Shown: in pieces, positions 1 through 56,889 of the stretch | How positions within the stretch are numbered: position 1 is the first letter of the stretch | How the letters are laid out: each line of letters begins with the position of its first letter | Assembly: GCA_024137785.1 (NCBI GenBank) | Contig: JAHRHZ010000002.1 | Span: forward strand, 4,927,258 to 4,991,257 | DNA: 64,000 nucleotides | Origin: Ginglymostoma cirratum | Lineage: Eukaryota | Direction of reading: 5' to 3' | Notes under the pieces: generated by a model | Seen by the model: only the letters and a program-made list of their open reading frames with translations | Told to the model about the DNA's origin: nothing | The model's database searches: none | Position numbers and translations under genes: made by a program

Positions 1-1912
1 ACAGGCTAAAATTGGGTTTAACTAGGGATAATAAGAAAGCTGAAATTGTAACAAAGTAGCCAAGCATATAGATATATCTGAGAAACAGTCAAGTGCAGTG
101 GAGTTAGAGAAAATTAATTGCAAATGAGATAACAGGATTTGGAAGACAAGGAAAGGGAAAGGGGACTGAAACAGTCTGAATTACAGTTAAGAGCAGAGGA
201 AAGAGAAAAGAAGAGAGAAGAAAGGGAAAAAAGAGAGAGTTTGACTTTAAGAAGTTGGCAATTAGACAGGAGAGTCAATTTAAAAGGATAGAGATGAAGG
301 TAGGCTTAATGAGGATGATAGTGATGATGAGCAAATCAATCATAGCCAAAGGCCTGGTAGGGACATATACAAATATGTCAAAACCTTGCCAAAATTTGAT
401 GAAAATGATGTACAAGTCTTTTTCATTTCCTTTGAGAAATTGGCAAAGCAGATGAACTGACCAGAGACTGTGCTGGTAATGTTAGTTCAGACCAAGTTGA
501 TAGGCAGAGCCAGTGAGGTATTTGCAGTGCTGTTGGACAAGGTGTGAGGGGAATATGAAGAAGTAAAACAGGCTATTTTGAGTGCCCACAAATTGACACA
601 CAAAGCGTATAGACAATGGTTCAGAAATGTAAGAAAGTAACCAGGTCAGACTTAAATCGAGTTTGAAAGAATTAAACAGAACAACTTCAATGGATAGATG
701 AGGGTATTAAAGATAGAAAAGACATATCTCTTAGAGATGTTATTCTGCTGGAGGAGTTTAAAAACTCACTTCCAGAAGTGATAAGAATTCATGTTGAGGA
801 ACAAGAAGTTAAAACAGTGAGAAGAGCTGCAGAGATGGCGGATCATTACACCTTAATGCATAAATCGAAATCTAGCTTCCAACAGTAATTTAATTCTGTG
901 AGGGATAGAAATTGGGAAATAGTGGGCATCTTCAATGAAAAATAAGCAGATCACACTGGGAACAGTTTACTATATGTGAGAAAAGAAACCCAACAGGGTG
1001 GAAAAGAAGTGAAAGACCTCAGTTGTTTTCATTGCAAAAAAGGTAGGATACACAAAGTTACAGTGCTGGTAGGTTAAGAAAGACACTGGGAAAAAGGTGT
1101 GCTAAAACCAGTGGGATTATTTAAGGTAGTGAAGGAAATCCCAAGAGAAGTGGAGGAGCTGCAGCAGAGTGCACAGCCTAGTCACGGACTAGATAGTAAG
1201 ATAGCCCCCAATCTTTACAAAGATTTCACCTGACTGGGTAAGATTTACGCAGGTAGAACAGGGGGAGTAGGTAAAGAAGTTAAAATATTGAGAGATATGG
1301 GACCTAGTCAGTCTCTAATAGTAAGAGATGAAAATATTTGCACTCTTTCTGAAATATTGCCGAGAAAGTGGTAACCTGTGGAATAAATGGAAAGTGGAGT
1401 AATGTTCCCGTGTAAGATAAGGCTAGAAAGTCTAGCCAAGACAGGGTAAGTGATAATGGGAGTGACGGAAAAATTGACTATTCCAGGAATTCAGTTTATT
1501 CTTGGAAATGATATAGCTGGATCACAAGTGGGAGTGATGCCCATTGTAGTGGAAAAACCAAAAGAAAACCAGGGAACTGAGGAGTTAAAAGAAAAATACC
1601 CTGGAATTTTTCTAGACTGTGTGCTGACAAGATCCCACAGCCATAAGTTAAAAGAAGAAGGGAAAACAAAAGAGAAAGATCAAGGATTTGAGGTCCGGTT
1701 AGCTGACACTCTGTTTGATGAGATGGTAAAGGAAAAACCTAAGCAGGTAGAAGATCAGATAGAGGTGTTTAGTTCTGAAATACTAATGGAGTTACAACAA
1801 AAAGATGAGATGCTAAAGAATTTATATCATAAAGCCTACTCAGAAAAGGAATCAGAGTGTATTCCAGAATGTGATTGCTTTAAGGATAAAATCTCAAGGC
1901 AGAAATGGAGAC

Positions 1913-1940
1913 CTGATGAAGGGTTTAGGCCCGAAACGTC
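1913..1940 (+). ncRNA. Minimal type I hammerhead ribozyme motif
   Basis: CTGATGA-A-GGGT TTAG GCCC-GAAA-CGTC: conserved core, stem II, palindromic ACGT stem III, GUC site. Confidence 0.75.
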
Positions 1941-2038
1941 AAGTTTTCCTGCTCCTATGATGCTGCTTGACCTGCTGTGTTCATCCAGCCCCATGCTTGT
2001 TATCTCGGATTCTCCAGCATCTGCAGTACCTTTTATCT
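1913..2038 (+). mobile_element. Short Penelope-like terminal unit (hammerhead + 3' tail) inserted into Gypsy pol
   Basis: Matches the 3' end of the PLE copies at 33371-33497 and 53165-53295. Flanked by 15-bp direct repeat CAGAAATGGAGACCT (1900-1914, 2039-2053). Confidence 0.9.
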
Positions 2039-4829
2039 CAGAAATGGAGACCTTGGCAGGTTAGTGCAAATGAGAAATGTGAGGAAGTTCACCAGGTTGT
2101 GTTGCCAGTAGAATACATACAGTAAATGTTGTGGTAGCACACAAATTACCTGTAGGAGGTCATCTAGCAGTAAGGGAAGACTCAGGCTAAGGTACAGAAA
2201 CATTTTATTGAACTGGATTACATAAAAATGTGGTTGAATTTTGCCATACCAGTCGTACATGTCAGATGGAAGGAAGGCCACAGGCAGTAATAAAACCAGC
2301 ATCTTTGATGCCAATTCCAGCATTTGAGGATCCTTTTACACAGGGTATAATTGACTGTGTAGATCCCCTCCCTAAAACCAAAAGTGGGAATCAGTATTTG
2401 CTAACCTTAATGGATGTGTCTGTCAGGTTTTTGGAGGCAATTCCATTAGAGAATGTTAGAGAAAAAAGGTTGTGGATGAATTGCTTGCTTTCTTCACCTG
2501 TTATGTACTACCCAGGGAGATTCAGTCAGACCAAGGGTCCAATTTTACTGCTAAATTATTTAAGGAAGTCACGGCTAGCTTAGGCATCAAACACTTTAAA
2601 TCAAATGCGTACCACCCTGAATCCCAGGGAGCATTGAAAAGAAGGCATCAGATCCTAAAGACAATGTTGAGAGCTTATTGCCAGGATTACCCAAATGATT
2701 GGCATAAAGGTATTTATATTATTTGCATTAGAGATGCTGTAAATGAGTCAGCACAGTTTACTCCATTTGACTTGATATTCAGACACAAAGTAAGAGGACC
2801 TTTAAAATTAATTAAGGAAAAGTTGATAGGTCCGAAGTCAGAGATCACACAGTTGGATTATGTACCTAATGTGACAGAAAAATTAACCGGAGTAGGTGAA
2901 TTAGCCAGACAACATTTGAAGGTAGTACAGCACCTAATGAAGAAAGAAGCGGATAAGAAATCTAAAATTTGTACATTTGCCAGTGGGGATAAGGTATTGG
3001 TGCCATTACCAGTAGTAGGAGATCCCTTCAAAGCAAGGTTTAATGGTCCCTATCAGATTGAGAAGAAATTAAGTCAGATGAATTATCTGGTAAAGATGCC
3101 AGATAGGAAAAAAATTATCGGGCATGTCATGCGAACATGTTGAAACCTTACTATGACAAGGAAAGGGAACCAGAGGAACATTGAGGAGTCAAATCCAGAT
3201 GATTTGGATTTTGATGTACCTCAGAATAACTTGAATAATGAGGAAGTCCTTAAGGAATGGGTTAGGGTAGTGAGTTATCTGTCAAAAAAAAGAGAACCGA
3301 ATTGAAAGACTTGTTACAGTGCTAGGAAGACCTATGTAGAAATTGAATGGGGAGGACTAATACCATAGTACATGAGGTTGTATGTAGGGAATGCTGTTCT
3401 GATAAAACAACAGCCCTACTGTCTTAATACTCTCAAAGCAGAGCAGGTTCAGAAGGAAATGGAAGCGATGCTCGAAGAAGACATCATAGAGACAAGTAAA
3501 AGTGAGTGACGTTTGCTGATCATATTGGTTCCCAAACCTGATGGTACTCAACGATTCTGCATAGATTATCAGAAGATCAACGCAGTAACCAAATCTGACT
3601 CATAACCAATTCCAAGGCTGGAGGATTGTGTAGAAAAAGTAGGACAAGCCACTTACATCACAAAGTTGGGCTTACTTTGCGATTACTGGCAAGTACCTTT
3701 GTTGGAGAGAGAAAAAGAAGTTTCTGCTTTTACAAGCCCAAATGGACAGTATAAATTTAAAGTAATGCCCTTTGGAATGAAAAAAATGCACCAGCCACTT
3801 TTCAAAGGCTTATAAACATAGTTGTTGGAGGATTAACTAATTGTGCTGTCTACATAGATAACTTAGTGATCTTTAGCCATTTGTGGAAAGATCACATGGA
3901 GCATTTGGCAAAGCTCTTTGAGAGACTACAAAGTCAAAGTTGGTCATAAACTTGGGAAATACAGAGTTTGCAAAGGCGGAAGTGACATGCTTAGAGAAAA
4001 ACATCAGATATGGACGGATGATGCTGAGGAACGTGAAGGTGAAGGCTATCGAGGAATTTCCAAGATCATCCGCGAACAAGGAAGTGCTACAATTTTTAGG
4101 ATTGAGCAGATTCTACAGGAAATTTGTACCAAACTTTAGTCCGTAGTAGCACAGTTGAAGGATTTGTTAAAAAAGAACATGAAATTTCGGTGGACAGAAC
4201 AATGCCAGGAGACATTTGAGAATTTAAAAGCAGTGTTAACAACCACACCAGTTTTAGCCACACCAAATTTTTTAAAACACTTCAAAGTCACCATTACAAA
4301 AGCGATGTAGGTGTTGAAACTGTGTTGTAACAGGAGGATAATTGTGGAACTGAAAGATCAATTGGTTATTTTTCAAAAAAACTCAATATCCACGGGGAAA
4401 AAAATTCAACCATTGAAAAAGTTATTGCGTTTGGTAATGGCCTTACAACATTTTAATGTTTATGTTGCAAACAATAGATCAGAGACAATTGTGTATATAG
4501 ATCACAATCCTTTGACATTTCTGGAAAGATTTAAGGACATGAATACCAGATATTTTAATTGGAGTCACATGTTACAAGCATTTTACAGATTGTACATGTT
4601 GCCAGTCATGAAAATACTACTGTGGCTGCTTTATCATGAGTTTAAAAGAAAAATGTTTATATAAAATAAAAACGGTAGTGTTCAATGTTGTATATATATA
4701 CAGAATTAGTATAAAATGCATAAGTCTAGGTTAATGAGCGATGGATTGAGTAATATAAGGGAGTTAAGGGTTTAAAAGAAAAAACCCATCTTTTCGTAAT
4801 GATGTTTCATTTTTTTCTTAAGGGGGGGG

Positions 4830-17558: not shown

Positions 17559-18590
17559 TCACATAGGAATAGTTTCTCCTGTATGATTGCGCTGATGACT
17601 GACCAGTGCCAATGATTGTGTAAAACCCTCATTACATACCTCACAGACAAATAACTTCTCTCCAGTGTGAACACGTCGATGATTCACAAGTGTTGATGAC
17701 CGTGCAAAGGCTTGGTTGCATATCTCACACCTGAATGGCTTCTCCCCAGTGTGAATGCGTCGGTGATTCACAAGTGTTGCTGATCGTGTGAAAGCTTGGT
17801 CACACAGATCACACTTGAAGGGTTTCTGCCCAGTGTGAATCCTCTGATGCATCAGGAGTTCAGAGGATTGGGTGAAAGCCATCTCACAAACCTCACATGT
17901 GAATGGTTTCTCCCCAGTGTGCATGCGTCGGTGTCTCACAAGTGTTGCTGAACGTGTGAAAGCCTTGTCACACATCTCACACTTGAAGGGTTTCTCCCCT
18001 GTGTGGACCCTCTGGTGCCTCAGGAGATCAGAGGATTGCGTGAAAGCCATGTCACATTCCTCACACTTGAAGGGTTTCTCTGCTGTGTGGTTCCTCTGGT
18101 GCATCAGGAATGATGTTGAGCTGGTGAAGGCTTTGTCGCAGACCTCACACTTAAATGGCCTCTCCCCTGTGTGAATGCGCTGGTGTTTTCGGAAGGAAGA
18201 TGAATGTGAGAATGATTTGTTGCAGACTTCACATGTGAATGGCTTCTCCCCTGTGTGAATGCGTCTGTGGTACAATAGGGTTGATGCCTGTGCAAAACCC
18301 TCGCTGCACACCTCACACTTGAATGGCTTCTCCCCAGTGTGAATGCGTCGATGATTCACAAGTGTTGATGATAGTGTGAAGGCCTGGTCGCACACCTCAC
18401 ACTTGAATGGTTTCTCTCCGGTGTGGATCCTCTGATGTTTCAGGAGATCGCAGGATCGGGGAAATGCTTTCTGACAGACCTCACAAATGAACAACTTCTC
18501 CCCAAGGTGAGTGCTTTGATGATCTATGAGTGTTGATAACTGTGTGAAGTCTTGGTCACATACCTCTTGCTTGAATTGTTTCTCTTCCAT
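17559..18590 (-). CDS. C2H2 (Kruppel-type) tandem zinc-finger protein, 343 aa, 11 intact fingers plus 1 degenerate N-terminal finger; no KRAB/SCAN/BTB seen
   Basis: Repeated CxxC-x12-HxxxH with TGEKPF-type linkers in a continuous ORF. Upstream splice acceptor TTTTCTGTCTTGCAG (AG at 18935-18934). Confidence 0.93.
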   Translation of the reverse strand: MEEKQFKQEVCDQDFTQLSTLIDHQSTHLGEKLFICEVCQKAFPRSCDLLKHQRIHTGEKPFKCEVCDQAFTLSSTLVNHRRIHTGEKPFKCEVCSEGFAQASTLLYHRRIHTGEKPFTCEVCNKSFSHSSSFRKHQRIHTGERPFKCEVCDKAFTSSTSFLMHQRNHTAEKPFKCEECDMAFTQSSDLLRHQRVHTGEKPFKCEMCDKAFTRSATLVRHRRMHTGEKPFTCEVCEMAFTQSSELLMHQRIHTGQKPFKCDLCDQAFTRSATLVNHRRIHTGEKPFRCEICNQAFARSSTLVNHRRVHTGEKLFVCEVCNEGFTQSLALVSHQRNHTGETIPM

Positions 18591-19544
18591 CTGGCTGTCC
18601 TTGTGTTATTCAGGGATCTAATGAGCTTGGCACTTGAATTGCCTCTCAACTGATTCTTTCATGAGTCAGTAGTTCATGAATTTCGATGAATGATCGAAGC
18701 TCTCACCACACTAGGAATCACTACACTTCTTCCCAGTATCACCCTGACCGATCACCCACAGCTGACCGATTTCCAGATGATGGTTTCACTGCCCAACCTT
18801 CTCTGTGTCGGTCACTGCTGTGAAGGGACCGGATATCTTCCCACCGTTGTACAGTTGTTTGTTGGCGATAGTAAGGATCTATCTGTGGTGTCTGTCCTTT
18901 GTGTATTCTCTTGTGTAGTATGGTGTAATCCTTCTGCAAGACAGAAAAACAAAACATGATTTCCTCCAATGTTCTCTTCTGTACTGGCTCCTCAGTTAGA
19001 GACTGTTCCATATTAAGTGCTAGTCTGATGTTCCCCTGTGTGGAGGAAATCACATACAATGCCTTTCTTCTTCCTCACTTGACTGTCAGACATCTTTTAA
19101 TGTTAGATTTTTATTCTATAATACATGCCGATAAAATTTACAATCAGCGTTTTTCACCATCTCAGTATTGTTACAGCAAATAATATTTTTAACTATAAAT
19201 CTGTGAAAAAAACCTTTTTTTAAGATCTGGATCTACATCTTTGTCAAAGGCAAATCCGTGCTTTCTTGGTCCATGTCCTGTGCTTAAATCTGTTAATTTG
19301 TTCCTGAGATATAAACAATAGCAAAATCAGTACTTCTACCCAGCTTCAGTGGTGGAGGTAACTGGCAGAAAAAGGAAGAATCTGGCACTAAACCTTGGTA
19401 GTAATTATACAATTTTACCCTCAAAATGAAATACAATATGGTCCTCAGGGAGCACGGGAATATCCACTCGCGCTGGGTGAGGCTTAACTCCTGGAGTCTT
19501 AAATTGAAAATGTGCCTATCACCATCAAAATTGCTACATGTGTA

Positions 19545-37609: not shown

Positions 37610-38560
37610 GATTGTATCGCACTACACCAAAGTACATAGAGAGGATAGGCACCTGTAACTTAAGGATAGCTTCATGGCAAAGCAATCATTTACTCAGACC
37701 AAACCTTCACACAGTCATCTGAGCTCATGCAACATAAATATATGCACCCAGCGAAGAAACCATTCAATTGTGACATGTATGATAGAGGAAAATGCATTCA
37801 CATGCAAGCTGCGCAGCTAATTATTTCACAGTCATCAACCCTACATGTAAATGTGCATATTCACATAAGAGAGAAGCTGTTTTCACGTGAGATGTGTGAC
37901 AAAGTCTTCACACAATTCTTGACCCCTGCAACATCAAACGATCCATACCAGAGAGAAACTCTTTAAGTGTCAGGTTTGTGATAACACATTGGCGACATCA
38001 TCAAATCTCTTGATGCATCAGAGAATTCGCACAGGGGAGAAACCCTTCAGCTGTAAGATGGCTTTGCCCCCAATCTTCCAATCTGCTGAAACACCAGAGC
38101 ATCTACATAGAAGGGAAGTGCTTTCACACAGCCGTTGAAGCTTATGCAACGTCACTACGTTCGTACCAGGGAGAAACCATTCCTATGCGAGATATGCAGC
38201 AAATCCTTCTCAAAATCATCAGACCTCCTGCTCCACAGAATAGTAGTCCTTCAGATGTATATTTTTCAAAAAAGATTTCTCGATCTCTTGGACTCACTCA
38301 GGACACCAGAGGATTCATATGGGACAGCAGCTGTGATGTTCGTGAAAAAAAAAACTACAGACCACTCACCTGCTAAAGTGGACTCTCACTGGCTAGAACC
38401 TATTCGGATGTGTGGTGTGTGATAAAGCTTCACAAGTCAATGTGTTTTCTTGTCCATCAACACACTCACACAACAGTAAAACTATTTGGTGTTCTGTTTA
38501 AAAAAAAGTTTTCTCACAGTTGTCAGACCTTCTTCGAACATCAGTGAAGCCACACAGTAG
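37610..38560 (+). pseudogene. C2H2 zinc-finger pseudogene, paralog of 17559-18590
   Basis: Broken fingers in several frames (KKPFNCDM, CDKVFTQ, LFKCQVCD..HQRI.TGEKPF, EKPFLCEICSKSFSKSSDLLLHR). The acceptor region 37510-37612 matches the reverse complement of ~18930-19010. Confidence 0.85.
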
Positions 38561-48964: not shown

Positions 48965-49270
48965 ATTGTGAGGAATTCGGATTTATTGGACGTATCCACA
49001 ATTTTCCATTCCTCCTGTTGGGGAGCTCGGTATTCCACCCTGTACCCTGAACTGTCTAGTCATGTTTGTGATTTTTGCCAGTCAAACTGATCATTTCTTG
49101 AAGACTGATCATGTCAAGGTTTGAACACGCAGGCTACTTGTATGGAGAAGGAGTATAGGAAAGTATGCCTTAGAGTGATAATTTGCTAGCAGGAGTTGTC
49201 TGATCAGTTACTGGAGGTTGGATGGAGCAGGCTTATCAGATATTTCGGCCTGATCTTTGGACGAGACACC
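48965..49270 (-). other. Possible terminal exon/3' UTR of the MHC class I gene
   Basis: Weak acceptor ATGCACAG at 49271 and AATAAA on the minus strand at 48987-48982. Confidence 0.35.
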
Positions 49271-49603: not shown

Positions 49604-49636
49604 TGCAGGCTCTTGTATAGGTCTCGCTTGGAGAAT
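49604..49636 (-). CDS. MHC class I cytoplasmic exon (33 nt, DSPSETYTRAC, YxxA motif)
   Basis: Acceptor TTTTGTCTCTGCAG, donor GTTAGT. The downstream intron begins with the same ACTGAGGGGACAGA motif as the intron after exon 5. Confidence 0.7.
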
Positions 49637-50023: not shown

Positions 50024-50127
50024 CTAAAGCTTTTTCCAGATGATTATTCCAAATATCGAAGCCATTGCAGTGACTAATCCAATCACAATTACAAGACGGG
50101 AACGTTCCATACTGTTTTCTGGGATTT
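50024..50127 (-). CDS. MHC class I exon 5, connecting peptide + transmembrane (EIPENSMERSRLVIVIGLVTAMASIFGIIIWKKL*)
   Basis: Acceptor TGTTTCAG, hydrophobic stretch then WKK, TAG immediately before donor GTAAGA. Confidence 0.85.
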
Positions 50128-50557: not shown

Positions 50558-50787
50558 AAAAGCAGAAGTTGTTGGAAAAGTGCAGCAGGTCTGGCAGCAT
50601 CTGTGAAGAAAAAGTCAGAGTTAACGTTTCGGGTCTGGTGACCCTTCCTCAGAACTGGACTGGACCAGAAACGTTAACTCTGACTTTTTTTTCTTCACAG
50701 ATGCTGTCAGATCTGCTGAGCTTTTCCAGCAACTTCTGTTTTTGTTCCTAATTTACAGCATCCACAGTTCTTTCGGTTTTTATTTAG
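50558..50787. mobile_element. Inverted Penelope-like terminal insertion (subfamily B) in MHC intron 4
   Basis: Arms ~50558-50636 and ~50660-50745 are reverse complements. 13-bp TSD GACTTCACTGAAT (50545-50557, 50788-50800). Confidence 0.9.
50620..50655 (-). ncRNA. Minimal type I hammerhead ribozyme motif (sense to MHC gene)
   Basis: GTT-CTGAGGA-A-GGGTC ACCA GACCC-GAAA-CGTT-AAC. Confidence 0.75.
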
Positions 50788-50879
50788 GACTTCACTGAAT
50801 GGTGGTGGAATAGATTCGAGGGGCTGAAAGGCAAGCTCCTGTTCCCATACTAGATATATGTACACATATATCGATAATC

Positions 50880-50886
50880 TCACACG

Positions 50887-50918
<32 letters not shown>
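50880..50918. repeat. (CG)n(CA)n microsatellite at the start of MHC intron 4
   Basis: Direct observation. Confidence 0.9.
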
Positions 50919-50934: not shown

Positions 50935-51213
50935 CCCACTGATAGAACTTGGCCTCTGACAGGCTGCTGTGTTCAACTTGACAGGAGTATTGATCATCAT
51001 CCTCAGCACTGATTTCAATCTCTTTCTGGATCTGATGGGTCCCATCATGGTTCGGTCGAATCCCTGAGGATTGTATATCAGACATGACCTCTCCATTCAT
51101 TAGCCAGGTCACCTCGATGTCTACGGGATAAAATCCAGTGACCAGGCAGGAGAGAGTGAGCAGCTTGTCCTGACGATTGGGCTCGCTTCTGGAGATGAAC
51201 ACTTCAGGCTGAA
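50935..51213 (-). CDS. MHC class I exon 4, alpha3 Ig C1 domain (279 nt)
   Basis: LSCLVTGFYPVDIEVTW..RPNHDGTHQ..YSCQVEHSSL..QW. Canonical AG/GT sites. Confidence 0.95.
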
Positions 51214-51321
51214 CTGTGATGGGAAAGGGTGAAAAAACAAACAACAAACAGACGTTGACTGGAATGGGAAAACGGTTTCTGAAAATAAATAAAAACATGG
51301 GATTAAAACTGAAATTCATAC

Positions 51322-51597
51322 CTTTCCGTTCAAAATATCTCTTTCCTGCTTGGAAATATACATTTAAGTCCTGAACAAAAACGTCTTCCAAATGTGTTTT
51401 CCAAAACTTGTTCCAGGTTTCATCAGCATTCCATTTCTCTTTCGTTTTCACTGCATTATGATTGGTTGCGATCCATTTCATTCTGACTGGCTCTAAACTC
51501 AGATAGTCTTTTCCATCAAATCCAACTCGCATCGATTTCTTAATAGAGCCATCGTCAGAGATTTCAACAATAGTTATAAATTGAAAAATGTGAATTC
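51322..51597 (-). CDS. MHC class I exon 3, alpha2 domain (276 nt)
   Basis: CTGCAG acceptor. GIHIFQ..DDGS..GFDGKDYLSL..W.A..AVKTKEKW..LE..YFQAGK..ERK. Donor G|GTATGA. Confidence 0.92.
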
Positions 51598-51899
51598 CTG
51601 CAGGTGTCCAAACAGAGAAAAACAAACAAAACATTTTGCTAATTGAACATTGAAAGTTGTTTGATAAGAGGGGAAAGGGATTGGGTTTCAGTTAGAAATG
51701 GGGAATTAGAGTCACAGTCTCTGATCAGAGGGGAGAGAGGACCTAGTATCAGATAGAAATGGGGGATTAGAGTCACAGTCACCTCAGGAGATTGACTGAG
51801 TGGAGTGACCCAAGGGTCAGTTCTGGGATATGAAGAGAGTGGAATGATTCTGGGTGAAAGCAGATAATCAATGTGCATTCTCTGTAGGTTTGATCTTAT

Positions 51900-52160
51900 C
51901 AGACGTCTGGTTTGTCATTGTCATCATTGCTTTCAGATTCTCTTTAGTCAGCTCTGAATTTGCGTTCACCAAATTTGAGATATGGTCCCAGAATTGAACA
52001 CTGAAATAGTCAGCCATGAACTGTTGCCTGGGGATGCAACGATGGATCACACTGTCATGGTAACCTACTTGGACTCCATTGACCATTGCTACAGATGTCA
52101 CCTCAGGGAAATCTTTAATGCCCGATACTATTGTGTATATCACTGTGTGCGACTTAGTGT
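51900..52160 (-). CDS. MHC class I exon 2, alpha1 domain (261 nt)
   Basis: Acceptor TTTCTCTTTACAG. DTKSHTVIYTIVSGIKDFPEV..MVNGVQVGYHDS..PRQQFM..FWD..NQTS (N86 glycan site). Followed by ATAAGA instead of GTAAGA. Confidence 0.9.
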
Positions 52161-53059
52161 CTGTAAAGAGAAATAATAAAGGAGGTTACCAAACACTAAA
52201 ATAAGCATCATCATGATCAACCTGGACTCTACTGACCACAATAAGCCCAGAAACCTCAGCAGTATCATTAATGCCAAAGACTGCCATGAAATATACTGTA
52301 AAGGTATTACTGTCTATAACCCACAATAACAGGACAGTCAATAACCATGTACACGTATTATCACATGATCAAAGTGACCCTCCTAACCAGGGAACATCCG
52401 AACTGAGGAATTCAGGTTAACCTGAGAGTAGGTCTATGGTTTATTACCATAACCAGAAAAGATGTGGAGTGAGTGAATCCAGATTGAAATAAAGAGAAAC
52501 AAGAATATTTGGGAGGATGAAGTATGAGACCAAGGCAGACAGTCACTGTGTGAACAGTCTCTCTTTCAAACATGGGGATGGACACTCCAGAGCAGGATCC
52601 TCACTGTCCTTCACTGAGCTTTTTAATCACCCCTTTATACATGGTCAGTAGGAGGTTGGTGACTGAGAAAATCCAACCTATTCAACCATGAGGGCATCAC
52701 AACTGGGCCTTGGTGGGTTAAACACGGAGTATCCTTCTCCTCCCGGCAGTGTTTACAAGGCTTCAGACCAGGAACGATGAAACTGGTTTACTTCTCCCAA
52801 TTGATGTGAAAATTAAAATTGTCCATATGGACTATTTCCCAAGCTTCTGTGATCTTGGGGTTTCTATATCCCGCTGCCAGGACACCTGGACACAAATCCC
52901 ATCCGAGTTTCCCAGACTGTGCTTCCTTCAATGTGTAAACTACCAGGCTGGCTGTAAAACAGGCGGCTGGTGAAACGTCCCCCATTTCAAACTCTCACCA
53001 AGAGATTTACATTCATGCCAGAAAGAGGGGGAGAATGGTAAACTGAATTCTGTACTTAC

Positions 53060-53111
53060 CAGGAGAGACCCAGGAAAAACACAGGGAGATGGAGAAAAGG
53101 ATCAGCAGCAT
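53060..53111 (-). CDS. MHC class I exon 1, signal peptide MLLILFSISLCFSWVSP
   Basis: ATG at 53111-53109, hydrophobic 17-mer, phase-1 donor G|GTAAGT. Confidence 0.85.
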
Positions 53112-53157
53112 TCTGGAAATCCACTATCCCTATTCTAATCAGGCACTGGGAATAATA

Positions 53158-56100
53158 CTGTATCAGAGAGAAAAAGTACTGCAGATGCTGGAGAATCCGA
53201 GATAACAAGGTGTAGAGCTGGATGAACACAGCAGGCCAAGCAGCATCATAGGAGCAGGAAAGCTTGACATTTGGGCCTAGACCTTTCATCAGAAATGGGG
53301 GAGGGGAAGAGGGTTCTGAAATAAATAGGGAGAGAGGGGGAGGTGGGGAGAGGATGGATAGAGGAGAGGATAGGTAGAGAGGAGGCAGACAAGTCGAAGA
53401 GGCAGGGATGGAGCCAGTAAAGGTGAGTGTAGGTGGGGGCGAAGGGAGGAGATAGGTCAGTCCAGGGAGGACGGACAGGTCAAGGGGGCGGGATGAGGTC
53501 AGTAGACAGGAGATGGGGGTGGGGCTTGAGGTGGGAGGACGGGACAGGTGAGAGGAAGAACAGGTTAGGGAGGCGGAGATGAGCTGGGCTGGTTTTGGGA
53601 TGCGGTTGGGGGAGGGGAGATTTTGAAGCTTGTGAAATCCACATTGATACCATTGGGCTGCAGGGTTCCCAAGCTGAATATGATTTGCTGTTCCTGCAGC
53701 CTTCGGGTGGCATCACTGTGGCATTGCAGGAGGCCCAGGATGGACATGTCGTCTGAGGAATGGGAGGGGGAGTTGAAATGGTTCGCGACTGGGAGGTGCA
53801 GTTGTTTGTTGCGAACTGAGCGCAGGTGTTCTGCAAAGCGGTCCCCAAGCCTCCGCTTGGTTTCCCCGATGTAGAGGAAGCCACAACGGGTACAGCGGAT
53901 GCAGTATACCACATTGGCAGATGTGCAGGTGAACATCTGCCTGATGTGGAAAGTCTTCTTGGCGCCTGGGATTGGGGTGAGGGAGGAGGTGTGAGGGCAG
54001 GTGTAGCACTTCCTGCGGTTGCAGGGAAAAGTGCCGGGTGTGGTGGGGCTGGAGGGGAGTGTGGATCGGACAAGGGAGTCGTGGAGGGAGTGGTCCCTCC
54101 GGAAAGCAGATAAGGGTGGGGAGAGAAAAATGTCTTTGGTGGTGGGGTCAGATTGCAGATGGCGGAAGTGTCGGAGGATGATGGGTTGGATCCGGAGGTT
54201 GGTGGTGTGGTACGTGAGGACGAGGGGGATTCTTTTTTGGTTATTATTGCGGGGACGGGGTGTGAGGGTTGAGTTACGGGAAATGCGGGAGACATGGTCG
54301 AGGCCGTTCTCGACCACTGTTGGGGGGAAGTTGCGGTCCTTGAAGAATGAGGACATCTGAGATGTACGGGAGTGGAATGTCTCATCCTGGGAGCAGATGC
54401 GGCGGAGGTGAAGGAATTGGGAATAGGGGATGGCATTTTTGCAGGAAGGTTTGGTTGGAGGAGGTGTATTCCAGGTAGTTGTGGGAGTCAGTGGGCTTGA
54501 AATGGATATCGGTTTCTAGGTGGTTACCCGAGATGGAGACAAAGAGGTCCAGGAAGGAGAGAGAAGTGTTGGAGATGGTCCAGGTGAACTTCAGGTTGGG
54601 GTGGAAGGTGTTGGTGAAGTGAATGAACTGTTCGAGCTCCTCGTGGGAGCACGAGGCGGTGCCGATACAGTCATCAATGTAACAGAGGAAGAGGTGGGGT
54701 TTAGGGCCAGTGTATGTACGGAAGAGGGATTGTTCCACGTAACCTACAAAGAGGCAGACATAGCTTGGGCCCATGCGGGTACCCATGGCCACCCACTTTG
54801 TCTGTAGGAAGTGGGAGGAATTGAAAGAGAAGTTGTTGAGGGTGAGGAGGAGTTCGGCTAAGCGGATGAGGGTGTCAGTGGAGGGGGATTGGTCAGGTCT
54901 GCGGGACAGGAAGAAGCGGAGGGCCTTTAGGCCATCTGTATGCGGAATACACTGGCCCTAAACCCCACCACTTCCTCCGTTACATTGATGACTGTATTGG
55001 CGCCGCCTCGTGCTCCCACGAGGAGCTTGAACAGCTCATCCACTCCACTAACACCTTCCACCCCAACCTTAAGTTCACCTGGACCATCTCTAACACCTCG
55101 CTCTCCTTCCTGTACCTCTCTGTCTCCATCTCGGGTAATCACCTAGAAACCGATATCCATTTCAAGCCCACTGACTCCCACAGCTACCGAGAATACACCT
55201 CCTCCCACCCATCTTCCTGCAAAAATGCCATCCCCTATTCCCAATTCCTTCGCCTCCACTGCATCTGCTCCCAGGATGAGGCATTCCACTCCCGTACATC
55301 TCAGATGTCCTCATTCTTCAAAGACCGCAACTTCACCCCAACACTGGTCGAGAACGCCCTCGACCGTGTCTCCCGCATTTCCCGTAACTCAACCCTCACA
55401 CCCCGTCCCCGCAATAATAACCAAAAAAGAATCCCCCTCGTCCTCACATACCACACCACCAACCTCCGGATCCAACGCATCATCCTCTGACACTTCCGCC
55501 ATCTGCAATAAGACCCCATCACCAAAGACATTTTTCTCTCCCCACCCTTATCTGTTTTCCGGAGGGACCACTCCCTCCACGACTCCCTTGTCCGCTCCAC
55601 ACTCACCTCCAGCCCCACCACACCCGGCACTTTTCCCTGCAACCGCAGGAAGTGCTACACCTGCCCCCACACCTCCTCCCTCACCCCAATCCCAGGCCCC
55701 AAGAAGACTTTCCACATCAGGCAGATGTTCACCTGCACATCTGCCAATGTGGTATACTGCATCCGCTGTACCCATTGTGGCTTCCTCTGCATCGGGGAAA
55801 CCAAGCGGAGGCTTGGGGACCGCTTTGCAGAACACCTGCGCTCAGTTCGCAACAAACAACTGCACCTCCCAGTCACGAACCATTTCAACTCCCCCTCCCA
55901 TTCCTCAGACGACATGTCCATCCTGGGCCTCCTGCAATGCCACAGTGATGCCACCCGAAGGCTGCAGGAACAGCAAATCATATTCAGCTTGGGAACCCTG
56001 CAGCCCAATGGTATCAATGTGGATTTCACAAGCTTCAAAATCTCCCCTCCCCCAACCGCATCCCAAAACCAGCCCAGCTCATTTCCACCTCCCTAACCTG

Positions 56101-56463
56101 TCCTTCCTCTCACCTGTCCCCTCCTCCCACCTCAAGCCCCACCCCCATCTTCCGTCTACTGACCTCATCCCGCCCCCTTGACCTGTCCGTCCTCCCTGGA
56201 CTGACCTATCTCCTCCCTATCCCCCCGACCTACACTCACCTTTACTGGCTCCATCCCCGCCTCTTCGACTTGTCTGCCTCCCCTCCACATATCCTCTCCT
56301 CTATCCATCCTCTTTCTACCTCCCCCTCTCTCCCTATTTATTTCAGAACCCTCTTCCCATCCTCCATTTCTGATGAAGGGTCTGGGCCCGAAACATCAAG
56401 CTTTCCTGCTCCTATGATGCTGCTTGGCCTGCTGTGTTCATCCAGCCCCACACCTTGTTATCT
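53158..56463. mobile_element. Young Penelope-like element (subfamily A; RT C-terminus + GIY-YIG) inserted as a large inverted duplication
   Basis: Minus arm 53165-54946 (AMGTRMGPSY, YIDD, NVVYCIRC..CGFLYIGETKRRL) and plus arm 54947-56463. 12-bp TSD CTGGGAATAATA (53146-53157, 56462-56473). Hammerhead variants at ~53266-53292 (-, GAAA damaged) and 56370-56397 (+, ACGT>ACAT). Confidence 0.95.
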
Positions 56464-56889
56464 GGGAATAATATGCTTTGAGGGGGAACAAATTGTTGTT
56501 TGTAAACTGGAAAAAAAACAAAAACATATCCCTGGAGACTTGATTTTACTAAAACTCGGATGAACTGTTGTTTGTACATAAAACTAGAATGAAACAAAGA
56601 AGTTTACCAAGACTTTGATTCACTGTTAAAACTTGATCTTTGATCATCTCCTGACAGCAGAACCAGCGGGTGAATGATTGGTTAATTTTAGTCAAATAAC
56701 CAATTAAAAGATAAATGATTGATTGTCACCAGTTACTGGGAGGAAGAAGTTCAGGGATTTATTATCAGGCAGAGAAATAATTGTGACTCACCTTTGTGTG
56801 GCACACTTGTTTGATGATAGTCTCAGTACTTCCTGAGGTTTTATGAAACAAAGTATGGTAATGTGCTATATAAGGAAATGTTGGACAAG

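Follow-up and report, generated by a model that had tools for sequence, protein, structure and literature searches.

Organization of the MHC class I gene

The 64-kb stretch of nurse shark (Ginglymostoma cirratum) DNA analysed here, hereafter the window, carries on its minus strand an MHC class I gene, for which Pfam matches to MHC_I and C1-set were obtained. The exon set of a class I heavy chain is complete, with leader, alpha1, alpha2, C1-set alpha3 and transmembrane exons joined at phase-1 junctions, and all three ectodomain exons (alpha1 to alpha3) have open frames. The region 51322..52160, singled out in a preliminary description of this DNA, covers the exons for alpha1 and alpha2. No other class I gene was detected by tblastn within the 64-kb window. 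The features of the locus are listed below; "family" refers to the group of shark relatives described in a later section.

53158..56461, no strand assigned: retroelement insertion of 3.3 kb, Penelope-like (GIY-YIG) copies inverted relative to each other, 34 bp before the ATG
53060..53111, minus strand: leader exon, ATG at 53111, phase-1 GT donor, in agreement with the family leaders
52190..52332, minus strand: relic of a second alpha1 exon (5' half, AG acceptor included), immediately upstream of the real alpha1
51900..52160, minus strand: alpha1 exon, frame open, with V7, F59, M84, the N86 sequon and an unpaired cysteine at about position 45
51898..51899, minus strand: broken alpha1 splice donor, AT in place of GT, the exon end reading G and the intron ATAAG
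51322..51597, minus strand: alpha2 exon, no cysteine (V101, F164), T143/K146/W147, Y123 and Y171 retained, private D129>V
50935..51213, minus strand: alpha3 C1-set exon, both cysteines present, conserved P235, Q242 and H263
50024..50127, minus strand: connecting/transmembrane exon of 104 nt, in-frame TAG at the donor, cytoplasmic tail cut off
49604..49636, minus strand: first cytoplasmic exon, SPSxTY motif as in the family tails, unreachable beyond the TAG

The search for the last cytoplasmic exon gave no confident candidate; a possible degenerate form with a PAPS motif lies at about 49215-49270 on the minus strand, without a clear in-phase acceptor. The intron between alpha3 and the transmembrane exon includes a very high-copy short repeat (50560-50790, plus strand) and, after it, a CA microsatellite (50897-50918). 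Elsewhere in the window, an apparently intact C2H2 zinc-finger array ORF of 348 amino acids occupies 17559-18605 (minus strand), more zinc-finger-like fragments lie near 38186, and broken LTR-retroelement remnants extend over 1450-3143 (plus strand) with an integrase core match at 2460-3140.

Loss of the alpha2 disulfide and the peptide anchors

As claimed in the preliminary description, translation of the alpha2 exon yielded no cysteine. Alignment by phmmer to solved class I chains placed valine (codon GTT) at position 101 and phenylalanine (TTT) at position 164 and bore out the replacements H159 and D167 as well as the retention of T143/K146/W147, Y123 and Y171, while a multiple alignment with Triakis classical sequences recovered V7, F59, M84 and the N86 sequon as described. 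Shark classical UAA (Triakis P0143-P0145; PDB 6LUP) shares with the window gene the exon layout, the class I fold, the beta2m-facing residues, T143/K146/W147, Y171 and the N86 sequon, but keeps C101-C164 and the anchors Y7, Y59, R84, Y159 and W167, all of which are missing from the window gene. The identity between Triakis UAA and the window gene amounts to 23-27% for alpha1 and to 36-38% for both alpha2 and alpha3.

Loss of both alpha2 cysteines is rare among class I sequences. A survey of 50%-identity representatives (the best 150 of 229) gave 190 alpha2 domains, of which 11 were dropped for not covering both sites; among the remaining 179, both cysteines are present in 167 and C101 alone in nine, all outside the family, while the three domains without either cysteine all belong to it. 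The nine unnamed non-family domains with C101 but without C164 are found under P0174, P0175, P0179, P0182, P0187, P0190 and P0272.

The unpaired alpha1 cysteine at about HLA position 45, a position that lines the B pocket, was absent from the preliminary description. It is shared by 28 of the 71 family rows and is the commonest cysteine there. When a replacement for the alpha2 disulfide was sought in the family, no second conserved cysteine column was found. The beta2m-facing and alpha3 core residues H93, Q96, G120, D122, W133, P235 and Q242 are kept in 71 of 71 family rows.

A shark family sharing the cysteine loss

Two homolog searches (120 of 153 matches listed for the second) yielded 120 cluster representatives, consisting of 84 family members (alpha2 covered, at least 50% identity), 17 distant class I outgroups and 19 partial rows that were left uncounted. 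Among the representatives listed, C101 is found in none of the 84 family members and C164 in seven, as opposed to both cysteines in 17 of 17 outgroup proteins; V101 is present in 78 of 84, and leucine, phenylalanine or tyrosine occupies position 164 in 59, including F164 in 22. The replacements of the window gene are the usual ones of the family also at other sites (V7 in 51 of 77 rows, H159 in 31 of 84). T143, K146 and W147 are retained in 60, 76 and 84 of the 84 members, respectively, and the anchors for the peptide N-terminus are gone.

A tree of the 89 rows having all three domains, built by a quick IQ-TREE search with no bootstrap, placed the window gene inside a clade of 72 rows (SH-aLRT 99), separate from the Triakis classical sequences, and, within this clade, in a set of five rows (support 97) together with genes of sawshark, bamboo shark, epaulette shark and zebra shark. 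The named family rows among the matches listed come from 13 shark species, with no ray or chimaera, and one row is unnamed. The family is multigenic, each species having many distinct clusters on a single chromosome-scale contig, as in the white shark with 12 rows, isoforms and fragments included. The best listed relative reaches at most 75% identity to the window gene over alpha1-3.

Two further proposals of the preliminary description agree with this picture: the gene is nonclassical, being placed apart from the classical sequences and outside UAA in the tree, and the absence of cysteines is a lineage trait and not random decay, since it is common to the whole shark family, including the closest paralogs, which lack both. 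An unpaired C164 is kept by seven of 84 family rows, including P0020, P0107, P0013, P0014 and P0032. Two such rows branch basally in the family tree, with weak support, hinting that C101 was perhaps lost before C164.

Relationship to published lineages

UEA was reportedly described by Almeida et al. in 2021 as a shark-only multigene lineage distantly related to dogfish UCA; its anchor residues are said to be replaced and its groove hydrophobic, and the published sublineages are said to number three. UEA genes are placed in the MHC class Ib cluster, with brd2/b2m on one side and rxrb on the other. The family around the window gene is likewise multigenic, is confined to sharks among the matches listed, and has replaced anchors together with a hydrophobic groove, as scored on a list of positions for which the family range overlaps the classical one. 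PMC10751288 and PMC12562908 treat UEA as a multigene family; multicopy UEA genes are mapped in PMC10751288, and its supplement lists, for white shark chr19, at least 16 MHC-Ib genes between 79.6 and 81.7 Mb.

None of the entries in File 10 of the PMC10751288 supplement bears the label UEA. The published reference that matches the window gene, a nurse-shark sequence in that file, carries the label UCA; as compared by eye and by hand counts, it lacks both alpha2 cysteines and is identical to the window gene at 55 of 92 alpha2 and 78 of 92 alpha3 residues. By eye, spiny dogfish UCA (AF515705) also lacks both alpha2 cysteines and has V at 101, but it is without the TK.KW motif (143-147) that the window gene keeps, and it is not closely similar, a hand count giving only 31 identical alpha2 residues of 92, where the nurse-shark reference has 55. 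Since the file is without a UEA label even though PMC10751288 maps multicopy UEA genes, the nurse-shark entry was read as a representative of UEA.

The UAA, UBA, UDA, UFA and UGA references of the same supplement keep both alpha2 cysteines by eye, and this two-cysteine feature of UBA, UDA, UFA and UGA is not shared by the window gene. The CD1-like UFA and UGA resemble it in being nonclassical shark class I molecules for which a hydrophobic ligand has been proposed (lipid binding is given in PMC12562908 as a personal communication), but they are of single or low copy number, and their references are, by eye, distant in sequence. Elimination, together with a multicopy distribution confined to sharks, makes UEA the most likely identity of the family. 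The UEA-like placement offered in the preliminary description is supported in this sense, whereas the new sublineage offered along with it is not, because the window gene nests in a family of 13 species.

Nor is the trait a surprising one, the cysteine loss being already plain in published reference sequences. In the literature listings and passages searched, no mention of lost cysteines in UEA or UCA was encountered, although one may still be published. Another sequence of the same supplement, the distant Pamandae_UHA, also has no alpha2 cysteine by eye, possibly representing a second, separate loss.

Three lesions in the window copy

The window copy differs from the UEA lineage, which it otherwise resembles, by three lesions: a broken splice donor, a stop at the end of the transmembrane exon, and an upstream insertion. 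None of the three was in the preliminary description, nor was the relic alpha1 half-exon. Read-through past the alpha1 donor runs into a stop after 11 intron codons. In runs X1 and X4, contigs that align gap-free over 51215-52487 with 43-44 differences in 1273 positions (96.6% identical) carry the canonical G at the donor, so that the AT of the window copy is derived. Of the GT[A/G] sites considered as substitute donors, the sole in-frame open one was 102 nt upstream, and its use would delete the alpha1 helix. U12-type introns have the 5' consensus ATATCC; an intron of this type was rejected by eye, the 5' end being unlike the consensus and the acceptor being AG. In P0036, a white shark gene model from which part of alpha2 is missing, the alpha1 end runs on into D-K-I exactly as in the window copy, which is likely to reflect loss of the same donor on a separate occasion.

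A stop at the end of the transmembrane exon is present in none of the 50 family rows with a recognisable transmembrane end, and the reading frame of the relatives implies that the lesion is a 4-nt shortfall. The insertion upstream of the leader, in which a GIY-YIG match was obtained, has inverted arms at 53196-54715 and 54947-56467, which are 95% identical. It is flanked by a direct repeat of 12 bp (53146-53157 and 56462-56473), a 12-mer that occurs exactly twice in the window and is read as a target-site duplication, and the 3.3 kb of inserted DNA likely separate the promoter from the leader. Canonical splice sites, a full cytoplasmic tail and an uninterrupted upstream region, as expected of a functional gene, are thus all wanting in the window copy.

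Alpha1 exons of two subfamilies

The relic half-exon gave a DNA alignment score of 95, as compared with a maximum of 60 in 500 shuffles, and is closest to alpha1 of the P0107/P0039 type, a subfamily type different from that of the real alpha1. The gap-free X1 and X4 contigs span the relic too, and it therefore predates the donor mutation. The subfamily with which the real alpha1 clusters (support 97) is not the one that attracts alpha2; 33 selected rows entered the AU tests (p=0.017 and 0.061), for which the groups were defined once the trees had been seen. This is suggestive of the window gene being an alpha1/alpha2 exon-swap mosaic. Its alpha1 and alpha2, apparently from different subfamilies, and a groove among the most hydrophobic of the family further set it apart from the UEA lineage.

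State of the window copy

Altogether, the observations are best accommodated by a multicopy nonclassical shark family, likely UEA, in which the alpha2 disulfide has been lost throughout, with the window copy likely non-functional through the three lesions; we assign this reading a probability of about 0.7. The window copy is then an ordinary, probably disabled member of a known nonclassical lineage, not a new one, and would be a casualty of birth-and-death evolution, unable to splice an intact alpha1-alpha2 platform. A gene that is functional in the species, the window holding a null allele or assembly errors while other alleles make the disulfide-free molecule, seems unlikely, yet has several observations in its favour. 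Apart from the open alpha1-3 frames, the decay is mild (eight deviations at conserved columns as against a median of four, with 10 of 71 relatives as high), and the X1 and X4 contigs have the GT donor. In addition, a 213-nt contig of run X12 matches alpha2 without a difference over 185 nt, the private D129>V included, and leaves the window sequence at the exon edge; because it stops there, transcription and splicing of this gene, or of an allele nearly identical to it, are possible. A search of sequencing runs listed no RNA holder, and X23, possibly an RNA run, was of no help at the alpha1 junction. The kind of run that X12 is, however, is not on record, and the remaining 28 letters of the contig could be the leader exon, to which alpha2 might be joined since skipping of alpha1 keeps the frame, both junctions being of phase 1. 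Moreover, the lesions are of three different kinds (a substitution, a 4-nt shortfall and a 3.3-kb insertion with a target duplication), which makes sequencing errors improbable.

That the window gene represents a new lineage or sublineage, distinct from published UEA, is considered very improbable. The identity of at most 75% to any listed relative over alpha1-3, the different subfamily groupings of alpha1 and alpha2 under the AU tests, in which the groups were picked afterwards, and the lack of the name UEA on any of the matches would fit such a proposal, but the gene nests deep in the family, within the well-supported five-row set of sawshark, bamboo, epaulette and zebra shark genes, and the published nurse-shark reference belongs to the same family. 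Disabling lesions would also be expected of a decayed pseudogene of classical or UBA type that lost cysteines and anchors at random. This origin is refuted by the family alignment and the tree and is given practically no weight: the replacements V7, V101, H159 and F164 are those of intact relatives, the identity to Triakis classical alpha2 is as low as 36-38%, and neither cysteine is missing from the UBA references.

Predicted fold, groove and ligand

The fold of a relative with V101 and F164, P0001, was predicted by AlphaFold2 as a class I platform with pLDDT of 84-95 per ten-residue block, a confidence that is no measure of stability, and with a less confident alpha3. A fold search with this model returned generic class I and MR1 matches, which give no pointer to the ligand, and no solved structure named as belonging to the family was found in the structure and fold searches. 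In intact members, V101 and F/L/Y164 would pack hydrophobically at the former disulfide site, and the heavy chain would still pair with beta2m.

Mean hydropathy over 39 groove positions is 0.65 for the window gene; the family averages 0.09, with values from -0.52 to 0.83, as against -0.30 in 12 classical-like outgroups. Values as high as that of the window gene are found in three of 71 family rows, and the family-average groove is just modestly more hydrophobic than the classical one, with overlapping ranges. An aromatic, hydrophobic groove of this kind would bind a lipid-like or lipopeptide ligand and not a classical peptide held at both ends; a non-peptide ligand, the possibility raised in the preliminary description, is a reasonable suggestion, and the ligand is likely hydrophobic. 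According to PMC6926029, the alpha2 disulfide C101-C164 of HLA-A2 is required for TAPBPR binding, which is abolished by its mutation, and loading of the intact family members is on this ground likely to be chaperone-independent, probably taking place outside tapasin/TAPBPR editing.

Implications

The locus itself is of little consequence, being probably a dead copy in a described multigene family. Of some use is the family, which provides a natural example, spread across sharks, of a class I platform devoid of the alpha2 disulfide. More speculatively, and in our estimation quite doubtfully, the disulfide-free platform could keep the half of its groove that takes the peptide C-terminus (N77, T143, K146, W147) while the half for the peptide N-terminus has turned into a hydrophobic pocket that binds lipopeptides, and could diversify by swaps of whole alpha1 exons between subfamilies, of which the mosaic and the relic half-exon would be the trace. 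If true, sharks would possess in such a lipopeptide-binding, exon-swapping repertoire an equivalent of CD1/MR1-type antigen presentation with a different fold detail. The intact members of the family offer a ready test of class I folding and loading without the alpha2 disulfide.
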